64,000 nt of DNA, from assembly GCA_963782525.1 (NCBI GenBank), contig CAWAKC010000010.1, forward strand, positions 160,001-224,000, read 5' to 3'. Shown in pieces: positions 15,327 through 35,210 of this stretch. The notes below the pieces were generated by a model. It was not told the origin of the DNA. It saw only the letters and a list, made by a program, of their open reading frames with translations, and made no database searches. Position 1 is the first letter of the stretch. Each line of letters opens with the position of its first letter. The translations under genes and the position numbers were made by a program. Origin of the DNA: Candidatus Bathyarchaeota archaeon (GTDB taxonomy: Archaea > Thermoproteota > Bathyarchaeia > Bathyarchaeales > Bathycorpusculaceae).

Positions 15327-18300
15327 CTACCTAAGATCAATTTGACGTTTCATAGGTTCCTTTTCATAACAAATCCGAAGCTTCATAATATTGCCTCCAC
15401 GACCACGTTCTCCTGGGAAAAAGCGTGTCTCAACTAGACCTCTGCGTTGCAACTCACAAATGACTTTTCCCGACCGACCTTTTCGTCCATATACAGCTGA
15501 AGCAGGCACCTTTCCATGTTTAACTACATCCATCGATGTCCTCCAACCCGACTTTTCCATAGGCAATCTCAACCGCATGTAGTCCTCAACAAAAGAACTG
15601 ACCAAAAAGTCGAATACTTTCCTCGAAGCCTCGCTCTTAAATTCAAATCCCACTGCTGAGACTTCTTTAGACTCAGAAAGCGCATTGACAGGAAGAATGG
15701 AAATTGCCTTTTCACTTGGACTCTCTTTCAATTGATCAACTGGAGATATTTTTATAGTGACCACTTTGGGCACGCAAGTTTTACAATTCCCAGTCTCGTC
15801 TATATAGACGATCTTCGGAGAAAAACTGTAGACACCTTCTTTGGTTGCGTATAGCGAAAATTTAATTGTTAACATTTGGAAAGGCGATATAGACTGTTTT
15901 CTGAACTCTATGGAACCTTTTGCCAAAACATAATTAGTAGGCATCTTAGAGACGCTAAAGCTGGGAGAATACAGGTTATCAACTGCGATAAGAAATCCGT
16001 TACATCTTGAAACGTTAACTATTTCAAGCCATACTTCAAATTCGTCCCCAACCGAACTTTCTTTCTTTAGCATCAAAGATGGCTCTAAATCAAAATATCT
16101 AAATTGACTATCAATTTTCTTAGTAAACATCAGGCTTTTTGCCCTTTGAACCTCGGCATCTGAAGATCGACCTTGTTTATCCAAAGTTGAAGCATAATCT
16201 ATCCTCATCGTTGCTTCAAAAGCTCTTGCGAAAAGTGCACCTTTTAAGAGGTCAAGACTCAAATCAAAAAGCGTATTGCTCTTTTCCCAATCCTTCTTCG
16301 CAGCAAAGAACAGCGCCTTGGCTTTAATCATGGCGGCATAGCCAAGTTTGCTCCCGACTTTAGACTCGTCAGGAAATAGGCGCTTAATTTCAACGTAGTG
16401 CTTTTCAGCGTTTTCCAAATCGCCAAGTTTAGAGTATAAAGCCAAAAGACTAGCCAAACTCTGGCTTTGGATATAATGAGAGTCAGTCTTTTCCGCATAT
16501 TTATTCGCTAGAAGATTCTGGGTAACTGCCGCCTCTAATTCACCCAAAATATCCAGGGTTATAGCCGAATAAACAGCAGCCCAACCAGTTCTATAAATGT
16601 ACCCAATCTTCTCACTGATCTCGAATGCCTTGCCAAAACACGCTCACGCTTCACTAAACAGTCTATAATTGAAGAACACTTGACCAGCATAAAAATAAGC
16701 ATCCACTTGCCCACGAAAATCTCCAATTTCCTCGTTCAATGCAATAGCACGCTTAACAACTACAATGGCTTTTTCAGGATAGCCCTCAGTTTGGTAGAGG
16801 CTAGCACTTTCATTTAGCGCTTGGGCTAAATCTGCTAATGAGTTTTCTTCTTCAAAAACAGCTAATGCATTTTCTAAACATTTCAACGTTTCTTTTGAAT
16901 TTCCAAATGAGCCCATGGCTGCTGCTTTGTTCAGAAGTAGTCGTGCGTATTCTAATCGACCAAATTCCACGAGGTCGTCTGCTTCTTTGGATAATTCTAG
17001 CGAATGGGCAAAATCTCCAAGCCATCGCGATGATGCCACTGATTTTCGTAGTGCTCGCAGCTTTACTACTCCTTTCTCGGTACTATACAAAAGATGATTG
17101 AACATTTTTTGTGCTTCACGGAACTCACCTGTGGCAAAAAATGCGTCTCCCAATCCTTCAATTGCTGAAGCACGTTCATCTAAGTACTGTTCCTTTTCCT
17201 CTGAAATATCCAAAACATATGAGAAAAATTTCTTCGCTTCCAGGTTACTGAATTTTGCTAAAGCCTCTTTACCTGCCCGCAAAGAATACTCCAATGTTTT
17301 GGGGCCATTTCCAGCTTTTTCGTAGTGGAACGATAAATGACTAGCGATACTTTTTTTCTGGTTCTTACTGAGGGTTTCCAATCTCTCAGCAATTAAAAGA
17401 TGGTAACCAGACTTCAACGGTATTGGCAATTCATCGTAGATTATTTCCTGGGACTTCGCGTGGTCAAACGAGTAAGAGCCATCTTCAAACTTTATCCGCA
17501 AAGTTGTTTTAGATATTGAATTCAGTTTTTCTAAAATCTGAATTTGCTCCTGACCCAGCACAGACGCAATCAACTTAAAATCAAACTTTTCTCCAAGAAC
17601 AGAAGCAACATCCAGTATCTTTCTGTGTTTAAGCTTTAAACTGCTGACTCTTTGCAAAATTATATCTTTAACTTTTAAGGGAATTATAACTTTTAAGGGA
17701 ATTACTATTCTATCGGTGGAGGGACGCCATTCACCATTTTCTTGAATGAGACTACCCTCATTACCCAATGTCCTTAAGGATTCAACAACAAAAAGAGCAT
17801 TACCCTGACTTTCAAATGATAATTTTTCCAAAAAAGTAGGTTGTATTTGGCCTCCTAACATACTGGATGCTAACACTCCAACCTCATATGCATTAAGGCT
17901 CGGCAACTTGATTTCCCGATATAGATCCTCTCGACCCATCGCTCGGAGCGTTTCAACAAGCGATGAAGGTTGCCCTTGTAAATCAAAACTTAAACTCTCA
18001 CTCCTAAATGTGGCCAGAACAAAAATCCTCTCAGAATTGACAAACCGAGAAATATAATGAAGTAATGCCAACGATGCAGAATCAGCCCAATGAATATCTT
18101 CAAGAACCAAAACAACAGGCTTTCTAGTAGACAAATTTAGTAATTCCTTAGTTAACTGATGCAAACGTTAAATCCATCCAAGCTTGAGGGGACCTCACCT
18201 CGCCTGTATATTCACTATTTTGAAGAGACACTATTCCATCGATTTGACCCTTAACCTTCGGCATAGCAGAAAGTAATTCTTCCGTATTCGGATAAACTGC

Positions 18301-18558
18301 GCTAAATGCTTCAATTAACGGAAAATAAGGAACGCCGGCATTACTCAAACACCGTCCCAACAAAACGTTAATTTCTTTCTTGCGAGCAATTTCGACAAAC
18401 TCATTAACCCGTCTAGTCTTTCCGCTTCCTGCTTCTCCAGAAATAACGATTGTCTGTCCATTAGCCTCCAGAACGGAATCTAAGGTCTTGTTCAAAGTGC
18501 TTAGTTCATTATTTCTTCCGACTAGGACTGGATTAGAAAGACCCAATCGTTTCACCAA
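15327..18558 (-). pseudogene. AAA_16/STAND-like P-loop NTPase with TPR repeats, Ig-like domain and C-terminal wHTH-like domain; disrupted
   Basis: LVGRNNEL, GEAGSGKT, VLEDIHWAD, SQGNALFV, FDHAKSQE, TPRs, GERGRGG. Frameshift near 18150, in-frame TGA at 16644-16646, 18-bp tandem duplication at 17669-17704. Confidence 0.8.
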
Positions 18559-24549: not shown

Positions 24550-27153
24550 TTATTTATTTTTGAATATGAGTTGACCGTTTTTTTCATCCACGATAATCGT
24601 TGTGTCTTTGTTGACTTTTTCAGATAACATCATCTTTGAAAGTTCGTTTAGGATGTCTTTTTGGATAACACGTTTTATTGGTCTGGCGCCGAATTGAGGA
24701 TCAAATCCAACATTGGCAATGTAGTCTATGGCTTTTTTGGTGGCTGAAAGTTTTATGTTGTTTTTTTCAAGCATTTGCTCAACTTGTCGTAGCTGCAACT
24801 CCACTATTTTCCGAATTTCCTCTTGGGTGAGGGGTTGAAACATAATTATTTCGTCGATTCGGTTGAGGAATTCTGGTTTGATGCTTTTCTTGAGTAACTC
24901 AAAAACTTGCTCTTTGGTTTGATTTAGGATGTGCTCTCGGTTTTCAGATGTAATTTTTTCCAGGTTTTCTTGGATGAGGTGGGAGCCTATGTTTGACGTC
25001 ATAATGATGATGGTGTTTTTGAAATCGACTGTTCGACCTTTATTATCAGTCAATCGACCATCATCGAGAACCTGCAGTAAAATATTGAAAACATCCGGAT
25101 GGGCCTTCTCGATTTCATCAAGCAAAACAACAGCGTAAGGCTTTCTTCGCACCGCTTCAGTTAACTGTCCGCTTTCTTCATAGCCAACATAACCCGGCGG
25201 GGCACCCACAAGCCGAGAAACGGTATGCCGCTCCTGATACTCCGACATATCAATCCGAACCATATTGTTCTCGTTGTTGAATAGAAACTCTGCTAAAGCC
25301 TTGGCTAATTCAGTTTTTCCAACCCCAGTGGTACCTAAGAAAATAAAAGACCCAATTGGGCGCTTAGGATCTTGCAGGCCAGCGCGACTCCGCCGCAACG
25401 CATCAGAAACCGCTTGGATTGCTTCATCCTGCCCAACAACCCTCATGTGAAGCTCAGTTTCTATGTTTAGCAGCTTTTGCTTCTCAGTCTGTAGCATACG
25501 ACTAACAGGAATTCCCGTCCAGCAAGAAACAACCTCAGCAATTTCCTCCCCACCTACCTCTTCATTTACCAGCGCTGAATCCTTCTGTAACTCTGTTAAT
25601 TTTTTCTTCAAATCCTCAATCGCTTTAGTCGCATTGGGAATTCTGCCATACCGAATCTCGGCAACCCTTCCAAGATCGCCCCGACGGTTAGCATTTTCCT
25701 CTTCAAATTTTAACTGTTCAATCTCATTTTTCTTTGCTTGAATCTGATCAACAATTTCTTTCTCAGCATGCCACTTTGCCCGTAAACTATTGCGTTGCTC
25801 AGTTAAATTTGAGATTTCCTGATTTAGCGACTTGAGCTTAACTTCATTTTTTTCTTGTTTGATGGCTTCACGTTCAATTTCCAACTGCCGAATCTTCCGA
25901 TCAACATCCTCAAGTTCCTGAGGCTCAGAATTGATTTCAAGCTCCAACTTAGAAGCCGCTTCATCAATCAAATCAATCGCTTTATCGGGCAGAAAACGCT
26001 CAGTAATATACCGAGAAGATAACTCAGCAGCTGCAATTATTGCATCATCTCTAATTCGAACGTGATGATACACTTCGTAACGCTCTTTTAAACCTCGAAG
26101 GATAGAGATGGTGTCCAAAACATTAGGTTCATTAACCATAACAGGCTGAAAACGTCTCTCTAAAGCCTTGTCTTTCTCAAAATACTTCTGATATTCCTTC
26201 AAAGTCGTTGCACCAATAGCACGCAACTCGCCTCGCGCCAACGCAGGCTTAAGAATATTAGCCGCATCCATAGCGCCCTCGCCGCCGCCTGCCCCAACAA
26301 GCGTATGAATCTCATCGATGAAAAGCAAGATATCACCCTCTGCTCCCACGACTTCCTTAATTACACTCTTCAAACGCTCCTCAAATTCTCCCTTGTACTT
26401 GGCACCAGCAATCAAAGCACCCATATCAAGAGAAAAAACCTGCTTTGACTTCAAATTCTCAGGAACATCACCATTAATTATGCGCTGAGCAAGGCCCTCA
26501 ACGATAGCTGTTTTACCCACACCCGGCTCGCCGATCAATATAGGATTGTTCTTTGTCCGTCTAGACAGAATCTGAAGAACCCGCCGAATTTCACTGTCAC
26601 GGCCTATAACTGGATCTAATTTTCCAGCCTGAGCCATACTGTTTAAGTTGATGGCGTACTTGTTGAGGGCATTGTAAGTTTCTTCTGCAGTCGCCGAATT
26701 AACAGAAGACCCCTTACGCAACTGACTAATCGCAGACTTGAGATCTTTTTCATTAACACCACTACTTTTGAGCAAACGCGAAGCAGAATCATTCAACGAC
26801 AATATAGCCAACAACAATTGCTCTATCGAAACAAACTCATCCTTAGCAGCCGAAGCCAACTCTTGAGCCTTATGAACTGCCTTATTGGAATTTGATGAAA
26901 GATACTGTTCTCCCCCGCTAACTTTAGGTAAAGAATCAATTTCCTTATCAAGCAACCCTGAGAAAGAGTCAGAGTTGACACCAAGTTTTCTAAGCAAGAA
27001 AGGAACCACATTCTCATCAACAAGCAAGATCCCCTTTAGCAAATGAAGCGGCTCAACAGCCTGATTGCGACCTACAGAAGCAATTTCTACAGCCTTCTGA
27101 ATAGCTTCCTGCGATTTAACCGTAAAATTATTCAAACTCATGCTAACCACCAA
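24550..27153 (-). CDS. clpB: ATP-dependent chaperone ClpB
   Basis: Clp N domain, LDPVIGRD, GEPGVGKT, coiled-coil middle domain, GTTGVGKT, GAPPGYVGYEE, FGARPIKR. Confidence 0.95.
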   Translation of the reverse strand: MVVSMSLNNFTVKSQEAIQKAVEIASVGRNQAVEPLHLLKGILLVDENVVPFLLRKLGVNSDSFSGLLDKEIDSLPKVSGGEQYLSSNSNKAVHKAQELASAAKDEFVSIEQLLLAILSLNDSASRLLKSSGVNEKDLKSAISQLRKGSSVNSATAEETYNALNKYAINLNSMAQAGKLDPVIGRDSEIRRVLQILSRRTKNNPILIGEPGVGKTAIVEGLAQRIINGDVPENLKSKQVFSLDMGALIAGAKYKGEFEERLKSVIKEVVGAEGDILLFIDEIHTLVGAGGGEGAMDAANILKPALARGELRAIGATTLKEYQKYFEKDKALERRFQPVMVNEPNVLDTISILRGLKERYEVYHHVRIRDDAIIAAAELSSRYITERFLPDKAIDLIDEAASKLELEINSEPQELEDVDRKIRQLEIEREAIKQEKNEVKLKSLNQEISNLTEQRNSLRAKWHAEKEIVDQIQAKKNEIEQLKFEEENANRRGDLGRVAEIRYGRIPNATKAIEDLKKKLTELQKDSALVNEEVGGEEIAEVVSCWTGIPVSRMLQTEKQKLLNIETELHMRVVGQDEAIQAVSDALRRSRAGLQDPKRPIGSFIFLGTTGVGKTELAKALAEFLFNNENNMVRIDMSEYQERHTVSRLVGAPPGYVGYEESGQLTEAVRRKPYAVVLLDEIEKAHPDVFNILLQVLDDGRLTDNKGRTVDFKNTIIIMTSNIGSHLIQENLEKITSENREHILNQTKEQVFELLKKSIKPEFLNRIDEIIMFQPLTQEEIRKIVELQLRQVEQMLEKNNIKLSATKKAIDYIANVGFDPQFGARPIKRVIQKDILNELSKMMLSEKVNKDTTIIVDEKNGQLIFKNK

Positions 27154-27958: not shown

Positions 27959-28414
27959 CTATGCTAATTTTGCTCCGCAATTAATGCATTTGGAAGCGTC
28001 GGGTTGATTTTTGGTTCCGCAGTATGAGCAGATTATCATAGCTGGAGTTGTTTCTTTAATTAACGCTTGGGTTTGAGCTTTGTAGATGTTGTCTCTTATT
28101 GTTCTGTAGGCTTTTTCTGCGTCATCTTTAGGTACATCGATTAGTATTAGCTGTGGTGCTGCGGATTTGAAGGTGCATCTGATTGTTGAACGCAGTATTC
28201 CCTTGTCTATGATTACATTTTCAAAATCTAAGTAGTTGTAGTCAGTGAAGTCTTTTTTTAATCCGAGTGCGTGAGGATGGCGCAAGATTACTCTCTGGTT
28301 GGTTATAACGACCGAGTCAATGTCAATCGCGAGATGGTAAAACTTTTGTTTAATGTAGAGTTCAATGGTCTCGTTAGGATCAAGTATATCTTTCATATCA
28401 TCAGGAGTCGCCAT
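27959..28414 (-). CDS. Bacterial-PH-domain protein with C-terminal Zn ribbon
   Basis: VVITNQRVIL PH motif; CSYCG...CINCG. Confidence 0.8.
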   Translation of the reverse strand: MATPDDMKDILDPNETIELYIKQKFYHLAIDIDSVVITNQRVILRHPHALGLKKDFTDYNYLDFENVIIDKGILRSTIRCTFKSAAPQLILIDVPKDDAEKAYRTIRDNIYKAQTQALIKETTPAMIICSYCGTKNQPDASKCINCGAKLA

Positions 28415-28633: not shown

Positions 28634-30058
28634 ATGCGCAAATTGAATACAAAACAACCCAATGAACCAAATCCACTTGCATCTAAAAACCAGACAACTG
28701 AGCAATTAAACCACCAAGAACTAGCCCAATCAATACTTTCACCGTTTATCCACCTATTCAACATTAATGAAACGACGAAGTGCCTTTTCAACTCTTTAAC
28801 TCTAAAAAAAGTATACTTAACCAATGATATGTACGCTAAGCTTTTAACAGATCTAAGTTTGGGAAACCGCAGTAAAGACGTTGAAAGTTTAATCGATCTG
28901 AAATTTATAGTGCCTCGAGGTTTTGATGAGATAAAAGTGTTTGACAGCATTGCAAACAGCGTGCTCAGAAAAAAACCTTCAACCAACCTTGCATACATTT
29001 TGGTAACGGACTTTTGCAACTTCAGATGCGGTTACTGCTTCATTGAAAACTCTCTAAAAGGGCCAAGCATTTCAATGTCTAAGGATTTGGCAGATAAAGT
29101 CATAAACGTTCTGATCAACGAAGCAAAACAAGTCCCAGAATACAGAGTCACATTTTATGGAGGAGAACCATTCAGCAACAGCGAAATCGTCTTCCACATC
29201 ATCGAAAAACTTGAGCAGGCAGCTAAAGACAAATTCAAATTTTCCTGCGTCACCAACGGAAGTCTAGTAACCGAAGATTTAGCTAAAAAACTCAAACAAC
29301 ACAACGTTACAGTAGGATTATCGCTTGACGGATGGGCCAACATCGACAAAAACCGTGTGTTTACCAATGGAAAAGAAACCTTTTACTCAGCACTTAAAGC
29401 GTTAACGCTCTTAAAAGAAGCCGAAGTAAATGTGGGAATATCATGCACAATCACAAAACAGAACTACCAATACGCAGAAGAAGTAGTTGAATTTATCCAA
29501 AAATTAGGAATCAGAACCATAGGGTTCAATTTGTTAACTAGACTCAAAGAGCCAAGCGAATATGAAGTTCCAGACCCAAAACAACTCGCCCACCACCTCT
29601 TTAACGCATACTTAAAAGCAAACGACTTGCACATGTTTGAAGATCGCATAGGGAATCGGCGAGCAAATTATTTTTTCAAAGAAATATTTCATTTGTACGA
29701 TTGCCCCGCGTTTGGTCAACTAATATTTTTTTCACCAGCTGGAACAGTTGGACCTTGCCACGCGTTCTATCCGTCAGGAAAATATCAAATTCCAATTAAA
29801 GATAATTTGAAAGTCCCAGAAGAACCATTGTTTTACAAATGGTTGGAACTTGGCACCCTAAAGAATAAAGACTGCATGAGGTGTCCTGCCATCGGAATTT
29901 GCGGAGGAGGATGCGCATACGATATATACGTTAAAACAGGTCAACTTGGCATCAAAGAAGACTATTTTTGCACCTTTCAAAATGAAATACTCAAGCTCCT
30001 TCTATCCTACAATTTCCTGATGACCCCTCAAAATAAGCGCAGAAAAACGAAAAGTTGA
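28634..30058 (+). CDS. Radical SAM/SPASM-domain peptide maturase with probable N-terminal RRE
   Basis: CNFRCGYC, FYGGEP, VTNG, SLDG; seven-Cys SPASM region DCPAF...GPCH...CMRCPAIGICGGGC...FC; N-terminal beta/helix extension. Confidence 0.9.
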   Translation: MRKLNTKQPNEPNPLASKNQTTEQLNHQELAQSILSPFIHLFNINETTKCLFNSLTLKKVYLTNDMYAKLLTDLSLGNRSKDVESLIDLKFIVPRGFDEIKVFDSIANSVLRKKPSTNLAYILVTDFCNFRCGYCFIENSLKGPSISMSKDLADKVINVLINEAKQVPEYRVTFYGGEPFSNSEIVFHIIEKLEQAAKDKFKFSCVTNGSLVTEDLAKKLKQHNVTVGLSLDGWANIDKNRVFTNGKETFYSALKALTLLKEAEVNVGISCTITKQNYQYAEEVVEFIQKLGIRTIGFNLLTRLKEPSEYEVPDPKQLAHHLFNAYLKANDLHMFEDRIGNRRANYFFKEIFHLYDCPAFGQLIFFSPAGTVGPCHAFYPSGKYQIPIKDNLKVPEEPLFYKWLELGTLKNKDCMRCPAIGICGGGCAYDIYVKTGQLGIKEDYFCTFQNEILKLLLSYNFLMTPQNKRRKTKS

Positions 30059-30206
30059 AAACTTTCATCTCCAAACAGCAAGAAACCCGCGACCAAGCTA
30101 AATCAAAAAAGCCCGGCAAACAATTGCCAATCTACCAATGTAATAAATGAAAAAGACATGCACACTTTTGACCTTAACTTTGCGCCAGATTAATTTTTAC
30201 AATAAA

Positions 30207-30214
30207 TATAAATA
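30207..30214 (+). promoter_or_regulatory. Putative TATA box for the precursor gene
   Basis: TATAAATA about 35-40 nt upstream of the TTG starts, with GTGAT SD-like motif at 30238. Confidence 0.45.
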
Positions 30215-30241
30215 TTGTTACTCACTACAACAATGTAGTGA

Positions 30242-30685
30242 TTGTTTTTGTCAAAAAATAAATCAAAAGCTAAAGCTCCCTCCAAAAAACCCACTTCTAC
30301 AATGCTTAATAAAAATCAAACCCGCGCGGCGCCAAAAAAAATGACCCCAGCCCAAACTAAACGGTTAAAAACAATTTTAGCAAAAATGCCACCTATCGAG
30401 AAAATAGATCCTGCAATGTATGCGAAGCTACAGTCAACGATTCATGATGTAGTAGTTAAAGCGTTGCCTGAATACCAGCAATGGGTGGGCGCAAACCTGG
30501 TAGCTGATGACTGTCCGACACCCTTGTGTAGCTCATGCGGCAACGATTGCCCAACTCCGTTATGTAGTTCATGTGGAAATGACTGTCCGACGCCAATTAA
30601 AGACATTGATGATCTTGTCAATTCGGCTGTCGAAAAGGCAATGACCGCGGCAATTCGTCAAGCTTTGGAAAAACAATTCAAATAA
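30242..30685 (+). CDS. Putative RiPP precursor with repeated Cys-rich core (DCPTPLCSSCGN x2.4)
   Basis: Lies between two radical SAM genes; Lys-rich N-terminus, helical leader, repeated core, helical follower. Start may be TTG 30248. Confidence 0.75.
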   Translation: MFLSKNKSKAKAPSKKPTSTMLNKNQTRAAPKKMTPAQTKRLKTILAKMPPIEKIDPAMYAKLQSTIHDVVVKALPEYQQWVGANLVADDCPTPLCSSCGNDCPTPLCSSCGNDCPTPIKDIDDLVNSAVEKAMTAAIRQALEKQFK

Positions 30686-30786
30686 AGATTATTTTCCAAC
30701 CAGAAACACAAACGCTCAATGAACAACAGTTAGCAAAATATTTCGCCTATTGCGCTATAACGCAATAGGTATTCTAAAAACCCCCT

Positions 30787-30827
30787 TCAGGCAAGACCAG
30801 GCAGGCTGGTCCTCTGCCTGAGTTTTT
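30787..30827 (+). terminator. Hairpin plus T-tract after the precursor gene
   Basis: TCAGGCA-A-GACCAG...CTGGTC-CTC-TGCCTGA then GTTTTT; a second hairpin GCCTATTGCG/CGCAATAGGT lies at 30745-30770. Confidence 0.55.
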
Positions 30828-30987
30828 AATCGTAAAAAACGCTTAATATTATTACAGAAAATTTGATAAATACACTAACTTCGGTTGCCTATCGTTCGAT
30901 CAATGTTTTGTAATAATAGAACAAGATTAAATCTATGTGTAGCATATTTGGAAGTTCTCCCACAAACAATCTTAGAAAGGTTACAAA

Positions 30988-32577
30988 ATGCGTGTAATTC
31001 TTTGTATCCCTCCAGTTTCTTCGTTAGTTCCTTATCCTGCAATTCCATACTTAACAAGTAGTCTGAAGGCAAATAATCAAAAGGTTAGTACTTTTGATCT
31101 GAACATTAAGGCTTTTAATTCAACTCTTTTTCGCATAGGCGTGGATATTAAGCCCGGAAAAATTTTACGTAACATTAATCCTGGCGTAAGCGCGAAATGG
31201 ACCAAAGTTCCTGAGGCAAATATTTACTCGACCATGCGAGAGAGCAAAGAAATTTTCGAAGAAATTATGTCAGAAGAGGCGGCTGATCAATTAGGTTGTC
31301 CCCATTCAAACTTAAAGTCCAGATATACCATAACCACAGAAGTAAAACAGCAAATAATTTCGGATGTTTGGAAAACTTGTAACAATTGGTTATCGGAGCT
31401 TGCCAGTGATACCAAAGAACAAAGTATTATAGGCTTCCATGTAATTAGTCAAACTGGATTGTTGTGGAGCATACTTCTTTCGCGAAAATTAAAGAAAATT
31501 CTTCCCAGGATTTTAACAGTCTTGGGAGGTCCGGCATTCCTCGCATGGGGCAAAGTTCTCTCTACCCATCCCGAAATTGACATAATAGTTCGAGGGGAAG
31601 GCGAGACAACAATCTCTGAAATAGCAAATTTCTATGACGGAAGCTTAGAATCAATAAAAGGAATCAACGGAATTTCATACCGAAACAGAGAAAATAAAAT
31701 TATTACCGTTGCGGACCGCCCATTAATAAAATCTCTTAATGCTTTGCCTTTTCCCAATTATGATGATTTGCCATTAAAAGAATACCCTCAGAACAAGTTC
31801 GAGATGCCTATAATTCCAGTTGTCGGCTCTAGAGGATGCATTGGAAACTGCGTTTTTTGTGTTGAAAAACGCTTATGGGGGAACACCTATCGGATGCGTA
31901 CACCTGAAAATATCTTATCCGAATTCAAAAATATTAAAGAAAAATGTGGGCCTTCTTTTATTCGCTTCAACGACAGTTTAATTAATTGTAATATAAAGTC
32001 GCTAGAAACATTCTGCAATTTATTGATTAAAGAGAATATCAGAATGCAGTGGATGGGTAATGCTCGAATCCGACCTGAGATGACCGATAAATTGCTTAAA
32101 AAAATGCACCAAGCAGGTTGTGTAGGATTATGGTATGGCATAGAATCTGGGTCTCAAAGAATATTGAATAAAATGAAAAAAGGGTATAATTTGGAAACGG
32201 CGAAACAAGTGATCCAAGATACTGCAAGAAACTCCATTCGCGTTCTAATATTCATGATAGTGGATTTTCCGGGAGAAACACCACACGATTTTAAACAATC
32301 AGTTGACTTCTTACAGCAGAATCAAGTTAACATTGATCAAGTCAGCATTTCACGTTTCGGGATCTTGCATGATTCAGAAATATCTCTCAACCCACAAAAA
32401 TATGGACTTAAAGTTACTGAGAAAAAAGTGGGCGTAAATTACAATTATACATATTCACCTAGACCCATAAGCAATCGATATGAAATCTTAGATTCTGCCT
32501 GGAAGCATTTGAGCATGCTAAAAACGGCGAACCACGTTAGAAGAAATCCTGTAAAAATAATCGTTCCTTATTTCTGA
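30988..32577 (+). CDS. Cobalamin (B12)-binding radical SAM protein (class B methyltransferase-like)
   Basis: N-terminal B12 domain (IPP...AIPYLTSSL, VLGGP, VRGEGE), GSRGCIGNCVFC, YGIESGSQRIL, FPGET. Confidence 0.9.
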   Translation: MRVILCIPPVSSLVPYPAIPYLTSSLKANNQKVSTFDLNIKAFNSTLFRIGVDIKPGKILRNINPGVSAKWTKVPEANIYSTMRESKEIFEEIMSEEAADQLGCPHSNLKSRYTITTEVKQQIISDVWKTCNNWLSELASDTKEQSIIGFHVISQTGLLWSILLSRKLKKILPRILTVLGGPAFLAWGKVLSTHPEIDIIVRGEGETTISEIANFYDGSLESIKGINGISYRNRENKIITVADRPLIKSLNALPFPNYDDLPLKEYPQNKFEMPIIPVVGSRGCIGNCVFCVEKRLWGNTYRMRTPENILSEFKNIKEKCGPSFIRFNDSLINCNIKSLETFCNLLIKENIRMQWMGNARIRPEMTDKLLKKMHQAGCVGLWYGIESGSQRILNKMKKGYNLETAKQVIQDTARNSIRVLIFMIVDFPGETPHDFKQSVDFLQQNQVNIDQVSISRFGILHDSEISLNPQKYGLKVTEKKVGVNYNYTYSPRPISNRYEILDSAWKHLSMLKTANHVRRNPVKIIVPYF

Positions 32578-32647
32578 ACAAGTTTATCGCCAGAGATGCC
32601 TTCTGGCTATGTCTTTAGTTTAGTTCACTAAACCCATAAATATTGTT

Positions 32648-33856
32648 TTGAGAGATCTTAAAGTAGAGCAGCGATTATTTTTGCCAAAAAACAAATCAGC
32701 AACTAAACCCCTCTCTAAAAAACCTGCAAAAACTGGTTCTAAGACAAAAACAAATGCAGCTGTTTCAAAGAAAAGACAAACCAAGAAGCAAAATGAAACC
32801 CCACAAACACCTTTAGACAAAAATCAACCCTTTGCAAAATTGAACCCAGAAATATATGCGAAGCTTCAATCAACAATAGATGAACTCGTTATAGAAACCG
32901 TACCCAAGTACAATGAATGGTTAAATTCTGCATTTAGCGAAAAAATTATAGTAGAGGATTCTTCCAAGGACGACCCTGCCTCCATCAAAGTAGGCGGGTC
33001 TGGTGCGAAAATTGATCAGATGGTAGTTACTGCTTTCACTAAAGTTATTAATGAGGCAATTAAGAAAGCTTTGGAAAAAAATGATCATTCGGGAATTATG
33101 GAAAAATGGTTCAAAAAGAAATTTTGTGATGACCTTTCTGACATTCGTCCTGAAAGCAGGAATTATTACAAGTATTGTGTAAATAATTTCGTTACAAATT
33201 TTTTTTCTAAAGACCGAATATCGGGAAAGAAGATTCTCGACTTTGGATGTGGCCCAGGATACTATTCCGCGATTTTGGCCCAACGTGGATCATACGTAAT
33301 TGGAATTGACAGAAGTGCGTTTCTAATTCACAAAGCAAACGAACTCAAACAAAAACTAGGACTTAAAAATGTAGATTTCATTCAAGGAGATTTTCTTGAT
33401 TTTGCGGCAAATGTGATGCCTAAGGAGTTTGACTACATCATTGCAGTAGACACGATTGTGAGTTTTGACTATTCAAGACAAAAACATAACCATGAGGAAT
33501 TTTCCCAAGCATTGAGCAGAATCAACAGAATTCTGAAAGATCGTGGCAGATTCTTTATTATTGAAGCGCATCCTTTTTTTGGTCAACTTGCTAAAGGAAT
33601 AAAATTCTCAAGCGAAGGACATTTTCACGGTCGTTTACCCAATTATAAAATAGAATATAAAGGTAAAAATAATCCTCACCATTGGTTTACTCTTAACGAA
33701 ATAACCAGTGCTCTTAGTGAGAACTGCTTAGCAATTTGTAGGATTTATGAGCCCGATCCAAGCGTTGAATTAAAAAAAGAAAACGCCCAATTATTCAAAT
33801 TTTTCCTAAAGTATCCCCACATGATTGTATACGAAATATGCAAAGTAAGATCCTGA
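32648..33856 (+). CDS. Class I SAM-dependent methyltransferase fused to a precursor-homologous N-terminal domain
   Basis: KILDFGCGPG, GIDRS, FIQGD, LKDRGRF; N-terminus shares YAKLQSTI and ID..V..A..K....AI..ALEK with 30242-30685. Probable start TTG 32681. Confidence 0.85.
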   Translation: MRDLKVEQRLFLPKNKSATKPLSKKPAKTGSKTKTNAAVSKKRQTKKQNETPQTPLDKNQPFAKLNPEIYAKLQSTIDELVIETVPKYNEWLNSAFSEKIIVEDSSKDDPASIKVGGSGAKIDQMVVTAFTKVINEAIKKALEKNDHSGIMEKWFKKKFCDDLSDIRPESRNYYKYCVNNFVTNFFSKDRISGKKILDFGCGPGYYSAILAQRGSYVIGIDRSAFLIHKANELKQKLGLKNVDFIQGDFLDFAANVMPKEFDYIIAVDTIVSFDYSRQKHNHEEFSQALSRINRILKDRGRFFIIEAHPFFGQLAKGIKFSSEGHFHGRLPNYKIEYKGKNNPHHWFTLNEITSALSENCLAICRIYEPDPSVELKKENAQLFKFFLKYPHMIVYEICKVRS

Positions 33857-34046: not shown

Positions 34047-35210
34047 TTGAAGAGGTGGACTGGGAGCAACATTTTTTTCCAGCTGCTCGTTTTATATATG
34101 CGATTGAGTATGTCGGTTTTCCTTTTTGACCAAGAAACGATAGGTATGATTCGCTACATTCTGGCACTTCGACGTTTTAAGGAGTATTCAGTTGGACCTC
34201 AAGGCTTAGATGAGTATCTTTGTGCCGTATCTTTCAATAGGGTGCTAATCCAGACGGGGCTAAAATTTTCCAAGTTTCAGAAAGATAATCCGGGAGATAT
34301 CCGAGTGTATGAGGTTATCCGTTTCTTAGAGCAGAAAAGCCACATAAATCCTCCAACGGCGCAGAAACTGAGAGAATACGTGGATTTTTATGACTCCCTG
34401 ATGAATACCAATTGTCAAACAGCTCCAATAAAGGCTAATTCTAAAGCTCAGGAAATCTTGCGGTTTCTCTGTATTGAAGCGGGCTTGGACCAAGATGAGG
34501 AACTCAAAAATAGGACATTCGAGGACATAGCAACTCTTGCAACAAGGCAATCTGCTGCAAACCAGAATTACGAGAAGCTTGTTGAATCTGATTTTGACAA
34601 TTTTGATAAACTCTACGAGAAGTGTCCGTCTTTGAAGCTGGAAATAGAAAAAAGATTAACGACCTCATTGCGGGGTGCACAAATATCGGGTTTCACTCCT
34701 AATACTGGTGGGATATGGCTGCCTTTTGTTACGCTTGAAACAAATGATAGTAGAGCACATATTGATAGGGCAAGTGTTGGAGTAATCTTTACGCCTCTTG
34801 ATGTTAGGATAGGATTGAATTTTGGTAGTCAGGCTCACAAGTTTAGGATGAGATATTATGGAATGCTTTTGAATGGGGAATTGATGAATGAGTTGGAGTT
34901 TCTTAACCGCAGAGATACGGGATACTGTTTCTGTGACACTTTTTGGAATTATCATATAAGGAATTTGCAGTCTCTTCAATGGTGTCTTACTCTTTATGGC
35001 AGTACTAAGATTAGTATTGAAAACGCTATTGAAGAGACTAGACAGCTTGAGGGAACTTTTTTGACGGCAAACAAGTACTTAATTAGTAAAGTGATTAGGA
35101 GAAGTCGGGAAGATTTTGCTTATGTTTTAAACGGACTTGTTGATGAGATTTCTAAGACTTTAAATGAACTTTATCCAACAATAGAGCGTATTAACAAAGC
35201 TCAAGCCTGA
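34047..35210 (+). CDS. Hypothetical protein
   Basis: 387-aa ORF with no motif recognised; true start is probably downstream. Confidence 0.65.
   Translation: MKRWTGSNIFFQLLVLYMRLSMSVFLFDQETIGMIRYILALRRFKEYSVGPQGLDEYLCAVSFNRVLIQTGLKFSKFQKDNPGDIRVYEVIRFLEQKSHINPPTAQKLREYVDFYDSLMNTNCQTAPIKANSKAQEILRFLCIEAGLDQDEELKNRTFEDIATLATRQSAANQNYEKLVESDFDNFDKLYEKCPSLKLEIEKRLTTSLRGAQISGFTPNTGGIWLPFVTLETNDSRAHIDRASVGVIFTPLDVRIGLNFGSQAHKFRMRYYGMLLNGELMNELEFLNRRDTGYCFCDTFWNYHIRNLQSLQWCLTLYGSTKISIENAIEETRQLEGTFLTANKYLISKVIRRSREDFAYVLNGLVDEISKTLNELYPTIERINKAQA

Follow-up and report, generated by a model that had tools for sequence, protein, structure and literature searches.

A conserved four-gene cassette of Bathyarchaeia that pairs two radical SAM enzymes and a scaffold-bearing methyltransferase with a Cys-repeat protein as candidate substrate

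Bathyarchaeia are abundant, uncultured archaea of sediments and soils. We analysed a stretch of 64,000 nucleotides (the window) from a Candidatus Bathyarchaeota archaeon (assembly GCA_963782525.1, contig CAWAKC010000010.1, positions 160,001 to 224,000 of the forward strand), and coordinates below are those of the window unless another contig or locus is named. A listing of the open reading frames (ORFs) of the window places at 28634-33856 a cassette of four uninterrupted ORFs, all of the same orientation on the plus strand. ORF 1 (28634-30058; 474 residues) codes for a homologue of peptide maturases of the radical S-adenosylmethionine (SAM)/SPASM type, here called the SPASM enzyme. It is followed by a small gene for a Cys-repeat protein (ORF 2), which opens with a TTG at 30242 and ends at 30685 (147 residues), by the gene for a radical SAM enzyme of class B type with a putative B12-binding domain (ORF 3, 30988-32577; 529 residues) and by a methyltransferase gene (ORF 4), which opens at 32648 and ends at 33856 (402 residues). 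This agrees with an initial annotation of the locus, which had described four intact, co-oriented genes with a Cys-repeat ORF between two radical SAM genes; the ORF and Pfam listings bear out that description. The start of the small gene is likely to be the second TTG, at 30248 rather than 30242 (which gives a protein of 145 residues), and that of the methyltransferase gene is likewise probably the second TTG, at 32681 rather than 32648 (gene 32681-33856). When orthologues were compared, the conserved N-terminus of both proteins began at the second TTG. At the position two codons earlier, most small genes have TTG and those of three loci have TTA, and most methyltransferase genes have TTA; since TTA is no start codon, the second TTG was taken as the start. 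A GTGAT or GCGAT word lies 6 nucleotides before the second TTG, and in the small gene this is GTGAT, which resembles a Shine-Dalgarno sequence.

The small protein of the window carries two and a half DCPTPLCSSCGN units and seven Cys residues. The two full units, of 12 residues each, are encoded at 30509-30544 and 30545-30580, and a terminal partial unit, DCPTP, follows at 30581-30595 (all on the plus strand). Ten of the 12 codons differ between the two full units and every difference is synonymous, indicating that the peptide sequence of each unit is selected and that the repeat is neither a product of chance nor a recent duplication of DNA. A word-based search detected 128 homologues of 100-208 residues. 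An exhaustive profile search of 1.84 billion representatives returned 19 matches to the small protein at E <= 0.001; the family is thus narrow. We counted 249 units in 120 members, with the consensus [DQ]CP[TV][EPQ][LVI]CS[SA]C[GS]N; three members had no unit, 21 had one, 61 had two, 34 had three and one had four. Pro at position 3 was present in all 249 units, Asn at position 12 in 243 and D, Q or E at position 1 in 248. The three Cys residues, Pro3, Ser8 and Asn12 are the invariants of the unit, and position 6 varies (L, V, I, Q or M). Together, the unit end C-[GS]-N and the D, Q or E that comes next (248/249 units) make up a C-x-x-D/Q/E motif. The Cys residues are spaced Cx4Cx2Cx3CP and their number follows 3n+1 (4, 7, 10 or 13), so that members with a single unit have exactly four. 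Divergent members, among them P0122 and P0127, carry other Cys-rich loops on the same scaffold.

Alignment of the small proteins revealed a Lys-rich tail, then a strongly conserved region with PPIEKLDPxMYAKLQSTI...LPEYQQW, the units with their Cys residues and, last, a C-terminal helix that is also conserved (AIRQALKEQFK). An AlphaFold2 (AF2) model based on the family alignment had a mean pLDDT score (predicted local distance difference test) of 65.5, with confident helices at residues 36-47, 57-90 and 122-146 and a pLDDT below 50 for residues 89-117, where the Cys units lie. With confident helices on both sides of the low-scoring units, the core would be an internal loop between two long helices and not a C-terminal core behind a leader. 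As modelled, the small protein thus looks like a folded, helical protein of about 145 residues rather than a leader-core peptide. It had at first been read as a precursor with core peptides. Of that view the Cys-repeat candidate substrate beside the enzymes stands, and the core peptide gives way, on the alignment and the AF2 model, to a helical protein with its units in an internal loop. No signal peptide or membrane segment is apparent in the small protein, for which the maximum Kyte-Doolittle mean over 19 residues is 0.63. It matched no family in Pfam or NCBIfam, and a Pfam scan of 30 members gave no match to Fer4 or another Fe-S family. The same scan returned LppA for 8/30 (best E 3.5e-5) and 56B_RHH for 3/30, which we took as compositional matches and set aside. 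Foldseek found nothing in the PDB at E <= 0.001 for the model (best match E 6.7), and the ESM Atlas gave no usable match. Longer fused forms of the small protein were not found at E <= 0.001, which is a weak negative, as the known fusion to the methyltransferase (see below) was also missed by this search.

The genome of the window also codes for an orphan paralogue of the small protein, on contig 3 of the assembly (83137-83625, minus strand; L005:9036-9626). This protein, of 196 residues, contains three DCPVEICSSCGN units and is extended at its C-terminus by a Lys-rich stretch; similar extended orphans occur at loci L028 and L029. Its gene is surrounded by genes for an XPB helicase/DUF790 protein, a PIN protein, a flavodiiron-type protein and an aminotransferase, and by no modifying enzymes.

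The SPASM enzyme matched the Pfam Radical_SAM model with 78.6 bits. The Cys residues of its CX3CX2C motif (C128, C132 and C135) and seven C-terminal SPASM Cys residues (357, 375, 414, 417, 423, 427 and 446) are invariant in all 19 full-length orthologues, and the seven-Cys region aligns to the SPASM regions of CteB and TigE. Its best curated matches were to Cys-peptide maturases, with FibroRumin (TIGR04136) at the top in NCBIfam (179 bits, cut-off 400, aligned over 36-453); further matches were PapB (150 bits, cut-off 340), CefB (126), QhpD (TIGR03906; 114, cut-off 453), the anaerobic sulfatase maturase (103), SCIFF (TIGR03974; 102, cut-off 425) and TIGR04463 (94.3, cut-off 525), with cyclophane-forming enzymes and QhpD falling at 90-114 bits. 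Against the PDB, a profile of the orthologues scored 112.8 bits with CteB, 108.9 with TigE, 92.8 with anSME and 24.6 with SkfB. Positions 33-457 of this profile align to residues 7-457 of TigE, and the N-terminal 115 residues or so match the TigE N-terminus, which bears a recognition element (RRE) of the type found in maturases of peptides that the ribosome makes and that are modified after translation (RiPPs). The RRE of TigE has been placed at residues 3-85 (PMC10878394). An N-terminal RRE in the SPASM enzyme is likely, since the alignment to TigE runs from chain residue 7 and covers this element, but it is not established, since Pfam gave no PqqD-like domain. TigE is a cyclopropyl synthase that acts on a repeated motif, and a GYW motif is the signature of such synthases (PMC10878394); a check of the sequence found no GYW signature in the SPASM enzyme of the window. 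A sulfatase maturase, named in the initial annotation as the alternative to a peptide maturase, is not borne out. The SPASM enzyme scores highest against peptide maturases, above the sulfatase maturase, and clustering of the ORFs of related loci showed no sulfatase gene conserved beside the SPASM gene.

For ORF 3, Pfam matched Radical_SAM with 60.3 bits and the B12-binding domain PF02310 with 28.9 bits (E 1.1e-6), just below the cut-off of 32.1. The CX3CX2C Cys residues of this B12-type enzyme (C284, C288 and C291) are invariant in 15/15 orthologues, and its relatives in the PDB are 9ccb, CysS and TokK. In NCBIfam it scored 144 bits with ApyD (cut-off 750), 141 with HpnJ, 140 with TIGR03975 (cut-off 282) and 130 with BchE. 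The similar scores of HpnJ and BchE, neither of which is a peptide enzyme, mean that the class of substrate cannot be read from the sequence.

ORF 4 combines two domains. Residues encoded at 33095-33856 form a class I SAM-dependent methyltransferase domain (Pfam Methyltransf_31, 80.4 bits, cut-off 27), in which a GCGPG motif is invariant among the aligned orthologues; its relatives in the PDB are generic class I methyltransferases, and the methyl acceptor cannot be read from the sequence. The first 145 residues or so (32681-33094) are a repeat-less paralogue of the scaffold of the small protein. BLASTP aligned the small protein to residues 10-144 of the methyltransferase with 34% identity over 152 columns (E 4e-19), and the Cys units fell in a gap. 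This N-domain is present in 17/17 aligned orthologues, most of which have a vestigial GNDC-like word in the N-domain loop, with a Cys that is not conserved. Methyltransferase genes and the second-copy small genes of other loci have almost the same 60 nucleotides upstream, which suggests a duplicated small gene as the origin of the fusion.

Sister methyltransferases, of 250-330 residues and with 46-64% identity, do not have the scaffold N-domain. A metagenome scan for such sisters was swamped by generic methyltransferases, and a single one of the 80 loci that were kept, L035, held a true sister. On this high-GC contig a 194-residue Cys-repeat protein, a SPASM enzyme and the sister methyltransferase are encoded in that order (L035:4760-7894). 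The 194-residue protein, with CxC runs and seven CAPPVDCA units, is unrelated to the small protein of the window; it showed no similarity to the latter or to its own methyltransferase. The SPASM enzyme of L035 is 30% identical to that of the window (E 9e-55), and its top model is again TIGR04136 (218 bits, cut-off 400). A SPASM enzyme, this family of methyltransferases and a Cys-repeat protein thus make up a module that is wider than one genus, to which, as judged by sequence comparison, the Bathyarchaeal version adds the B12-type enzyme and the scaffold domain.

A scan of the genome collection, with genes placed by tblastn, gave 28 related loci, which come from 19 assemblies and, with one exception, carry the label Candidatus Bathyarchaeota. 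That homologues of the small ORF should be linked to these enzymes, as the initial annotation expected, is what we found: the SPASM gene lies directly upstream of the small gene in 24/28 loci (once as a remnant), and the SPASM orthologue occurs in exactly the same 22 of the 120 genomes of the window's GTDB genus that have the small protein. Downstream of the small gene, the B12-type gene is present in 20 of the 28 loci and the methyltransferase gene in 22; the full order of four genes is found in 20, and eight have a second small gene between the B12-type gene and the methyltransferase gene. Within the genus, the B12-type enzyme was detected in 18/120 genomes and the methyltransferase in 20/120, all of them subsets of the 22, and none of the four genes was found in a genome of these 120 that lacked the small protein. 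The four-gene linkage is real. Two or three cassettes are present in several genomes. A sample of 300 other genomes from the class, 14 of them of the same genus, yielded neither the small protein nor the SPASM orthologue, and no methyltransferase domain or sister methyltransferase. As some genomes that lack a cassette are nearly complete and consist of few contigs, its absence from them is probably genuine. The cassette is confined to a part of a single genus of Bathyarchaeia. We also clustered all ORFs of the window locus and of 29 others (the related 28 plus L005, where the paralogue of the window's own genome lies). In flanks of 8 kb on either side, no family besides the four of the cassette was conserved, and neither a protease nor a transporter family accompanied the cassette. 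The other recurrent clusters in the flanks were antisense shadows, transposases and surface proteins.

At L007, L008, L017, L022, L023, L027, L032 and others, the SPASM, B12-type or methyltransferase gene was recovered by tblastn as two to five frame-shifted pieces, and in several genomes of the genus stop codons fall inside the matches to cassette genes, through assembly error or gene decay. A 10.4-kb contig titled Candidatus Sulfotelmatobacter (L030) has a small gene of the Bathyarchaeal type and a SPASM gene of 75% identity, with a second, StsB-like SPASM gene upstream, an alpha-amylase gene downstream and no B12-type or methyltransferase gene; its placement could reflect a binning error or gene transfer. 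A transposase-like family of about 330-490 residues, starting MSEHV.GTHRDQTVLFP, recurs in the flanks of L007, L009, L020 and L024.

Upstream regions were compared between the window (30182-30271 and 32615-32704) and the corresponding parts of L006-L033. Conserved A/T-rich boxes were seen by eye about 45 nucleotides upstream of the small gene and of the methyltransferase gene; in the window these TATA-like boxes are at 30202-30217 and 32635-32645 (plus strand), respectively. The upstream 60 nucleotides are conserved among first-copy small genes and differ from those of the methyltransferase and second-copy small genes, and in all three kinds of gene the conservation of the first eight codons extends to the nucleotide level. 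Two stem-loops (30745-30770 and 30788-30820, plus strand) lie between the small gene and the B12-type gene, with TTTTT at 30823-30827 after the second. The predicted RNA fold of 30680-30850 has an energy of -42.2 kcal/mol (z = -5.0), and none of 200 shuffles was as stable. A stem-loop with a T-run follows most first-copy small genes, as seen by eye and without a formal count. These stem-loops are a putative terminator or attenuator; if so, more transcript of the substrate than of the enzymes would be made, as is common for precursor genes.

The cassette is preceded, on the minus strand, by a ClpB gene (24550-27153) and a gene for a protein with bacterial-PH (bPH) and zinc-ribbon domains (27959-28414). 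The cassette has ClpB next to it also at L006 and L031, and the bPH gene at L016; at the other loci it has neither. The bPH/zinc-ribbon gene and, on the other side, an ORF at 34047-35210 (387 residues) were considered as members of the cassette and rejected, as they are not conserved across loci. Many neighbouring genes had also been noted as disrupted. Of this, a spot check upheld one case, an ATPase gene with AAA_16 and TPR domains (STAND-like) at 16644-18558 on the minus strand, which is split into ORFs 18148-18558 and 16644-18164, with AAA_16 profile positions 2-75 in one and 119-166 in the other; the other ORF pairs that were tested had no Pfam match and were uninformative.

We consider it probable, though by no wide measure, that the locus is a self-contained cassette that modifies a protein post-translationally by RiPP-like chemistry and that the product stays intact. 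From the gene content, conservation, linkage and domain homologies described above we infer the chemical steps, the docking of the N-domain and the cellular role as follows. The substrate would be the small protein of about 145 residues, with its Lys-rich N-terminal tail, its helical scaffold and a loop of one to four 12-residue units of the form [DQ]-C-P-x-x-x-C-S-x-C-x-N. The SPASM enzyme would bind the conserved non-repeat part of this protein through its N-terminal RRE-like domain and would join Cys sulfurs to side-chain carbons nearby, most likely in ranthionine-type thioethers at C-x-x-D/Q/E. Every unit brings one C-x-x-[D/Q/E], and motifs of this kind serve PapB and CrpC; the loop would thus be turned into a rigid, polycyclic structure held by thioethers. 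The B12-type enzyme would methylate unactivated carbons, and the class I methyltransferase would add a further methyl group to O, S or N. The methyltransferase may be recruited by its own copy of the scaffold, which would pair with the scaffold of the substrate or with the same docking site. With no protease, exporter, signal peptide or membrane segment, the product is most likely an intact modified protein inside the cell, and the lack of a conserved protease or transporter makes a released natural product less likely than a modified protein. Possibly, the role of this protein is related to metals or redox reactions. It is also conceivable, if rather doubtful, that the cassette embodies a new layout for RiPP-like chemistry: a core held as a loop on a small helical scaffold, a tailoring enzyme that docks by a core-less copy of this scaffold, pairing with the substrate that it mimics, instead of by a leader-binding RRE, and a thioether-bridged, methylated Cys loop that serves these archaea internally as a functional site embedded in a protein, for example a metal- or redox-active one, and not as an antibiotic.

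Another way to read the locus, and the picture drawn in the initial annotation, is a classical multi-core RiPP, whose 12-residue units would be excised after modification and released as thioether peptides acting as antimicrobials or signals. The units are indeed tandem and near-identical, as in multi-core precursors, several genomes have two or three cassettes and extra precursor copies, and the relatives of the SPASM enzyme are RiPP maturases. Nevertheless, this seems unlikely to us, as the window and the 29 loci clustered with it share no conserved family of proteases or transporters, the units abut without spacers or recognisable cleavage sites, and the C-terminal helix that comes after them is conserved as strongly as the N-terminal part. 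Moreover, the units are near-invariant across paralogues, unlike typical hypervariable cores, and the small protein has no signal or membrane segment.

The loop might instead be the target of other SPASM radical chemistry, such as sactionine C-alpha thioethers, C-C crosslinks, cyclopropanation of the hydrophobic residue at position 6 or epimerisation, with the Cys residues kept for, e.g., metal binding. TigE is nearly as close to the SPASM enzyme as CteB (108.9 versus 112.8 bits), the cyclophane-forming enzymes and QhpD stand at 90-114 bits, and no family cut-off is reached, all of which would suit such a reading. It is made improbable by the missing GYW motif of the cyclopropyl synthases, by the pattern of conservation in the unit, where the three Cys residues, Pro3, Ser8 and Asn12 are invariant while position 6 varies, and by the far weaker relationship to the sactisynthase SkfB (24.6 bits). 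Ferredoxins bind their clusters through a CxxCxxCxxxCP motif, and the Cx4Cx2Cx3CP spacing of the small protein recalls its C-terminal part; together with the four Cys residues of the single-unit members and the need of all three enzymes for reducing equivalents, this could mean that the small protein is itself unmodified and is a metal- or Fe-S-binding partner (an electron carrier or cluster donor) of radical SAM enzymes that act elsewhere. We hold this to be very unlikely. Among the 30 members scanned there was no match to Fer4 or another Fe-S family, and the full CxxCxxCxxxCP motif does not occur, a Cys number of 3n+1 (4, 7, 10, 13) does not fit whole clusters, a variable number of units and a low-confidence loop would be unusual for a cofactor site, and the nearest relatives of the SPASM enzyme all act on an adjacent peptide.

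Several observations weigh against the favoured reading of an intact, RiPP-like modified protein. The thioether and methylation chemistry is inferred. The SPASM enzyme falls below the cut-off of every curated NCBIfam family (179 bits against 400 at best), Pfam found no PqqD or RRE match in its isolated residues 1-121, and the Pfam SPASM model did not match its isolated residues 343-474; TigE, its second-best solved relative, makes cyclopropanes and not thioethers. The B12-type enzyme likewise falls below the cut-off of every class B model of NCBIfam. Four of the 28 related loci are orphan small genes without enzymes, and the paralogue on contig 3 of the window's genome is one more, which implies that modification occurs in trans or is not needed. 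The B12-type enzyme is missing from 4/22 and the methyltransferase from 2/22 of the genomes with the small protein, so that either the methylations are dispensable or these assemblies are incomplete or broken. Enzyme genes are frame-shifted in several related assemblies, and this could be decay rather than sequencing error. The structure model of the methyltransferase is poor (mean pLDDT 52.9), and the packing of the N-domain cannot be read from it. Finally, a complex prediction for residues 30-147 of the small protein and 55-150 of the methyltransferase gave a median score of 0.41, against 0.00 for the best of three controls (partner pLDDT of at least 50; runs agreeing in at least 53% of contacts), which was graded as "weak support" only and is a hint at most. 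In the calibration of this test, 58/80 solved complexes and 2/110 mismatched pairs reached the mark; at scores <= 0.60 there were 7/80 solved complexes, plus both passing mismatches.

If the favoured reading is right, the cassette extends a newly recognised class, in which proteins, not peptides, receive RiPP-type crosslinks, and adds two tailoring enzymes to it. It also offers a compact test case of four genes that is suited to heterologous expression. The scaffold-bearing methyltransferase suggests a testable principle of recognition that, if true, could be reused in engineering, and the sister module of L035 extends the pairing of a SPASM enzyme, a methyltransferase and a Cys-repeat protein to an unrelated high-GC contig, beyond this genus. 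New relative to the initial annotation are the folded-looking substrate, the copy of the scaffold on the methyltransferase and the lack of a conserved protease or exporter. Literature searches returned no paper on radical SAM or RiPP maturation in Bathyarchaeota or Bathyarchaeia, none that joins cobalamin-dependent radical SAM enzymes, ranthipeptides and methyltransferases, and none that uses the name FibroRumin. In the accessible text of a survey of archaeal RiPPs, classes modified by radical SAM enzymes are treated in general terms only and Bathyarchaeia are not mentioned (PMC12144867).

Among known systems, PapB/freyrasin and CteB/thermocellin have a radical SAM/SPASM enzyme of the same architecture, and of the named matches theirs are the best (PapB with 150 bits, CteB with 112.8 bits). 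In these systems, too, the Cys motif of the substrate recurs, and an acidic or polar acceptor lies a few positions behind the Cys (CX3D in the case of PapB). However, these substrates are short leader-core peptides, the clusters have no B12-type radical SAM enzyme or scaffold-bearing methyltransferase, and the scores of the window enzyme stay below the cut-offs. The curated model at the top of the list, FibroRumin TIGR04136, is far from reached by either enzyme (179 bits for the window and 218 bits for L035, both far under 400). Covalent fusion of a SAM methyltransferase to its own precursor sequence is known from the borosins, and the methyltransferase of the window is likewise joined to precursor-derived sequence. 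Here, however, the fused part is a core-less scaffold at the N-terminus and the substrate gene is separate. The B12-type enzyme, with a B12-like N-terminal domain and a CX3CX2C core, resembles ApyD, TIGR03975 and enzymes of the PoyC type, but scores 144 against a cut-off of 750 and 140 against 282 for the first two. ApyD has been described to methylate the beta-carbon of a Tyr residue of a RiPP (PMC10635010).

The proposal that the modified protein would stay in the machinery of the cell has a parallel in QhpC, a small protein and subunit of quinohemoprotein amine dehydrogenase, in which the radical SAM/SPASM enzyme QhpD forms Cys-to-Asp/Glu thioethers. The window enzyme differs from QhpD in its score (114 bits against a cut-off of 453), and no amine dehydrogenase subunits are encoded nearby. 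The QhpD/QhpC pair has itself been cited as a parallel to the Crp system of Methanococcus voltae, in which CrpC (TIGR04463) forms thioethers in CrpA, a protein with repeats that contain C-X-X-Q/D (PMC13692751, 2026). With the publication of CrpABC, the general idea of the initial annotation is no longer without precedent. CrpB shares the N-terminus of CrpA and improves its processing, for which the authors suggest recognition between domains, and they also suggest a metal-related role (PMC13692751). The supplementary tables of the Crp paper hold other radical SAM-associated Cys-rich proteins and might include the family described here (PMC13692751). The likeness between the two systems, as far as the accessible account of Crp goes, is considerable. 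Both are archaeal and have a protein of more than 100 residues with tandem Cys motifs, C-x-x-D/Q among them, beside a radical SAM/SPASM enzyme that bears an RRE in Crp and a likely one here; a second protein shares the N-terminal region of the substrate in both; and neither cluster has a protease or exporter, the product being thought to remain a protein in both. On the other hand, the SPASM enzyme of the window falls outside TIGR04463, reaching 94.3 bits where the cut-off is 525. The substrates are unrelated, with 12-residue units in an internal loop here and 17-residue units at the C-terminus in CrpA. Moreover, the window adds a B12-type radical SAM enzyme and a methyltransferase, and its protein with the shared N-terminal region is itself an enzyme. 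We therefore propose that the cassette may work like Crp but is not Crp.

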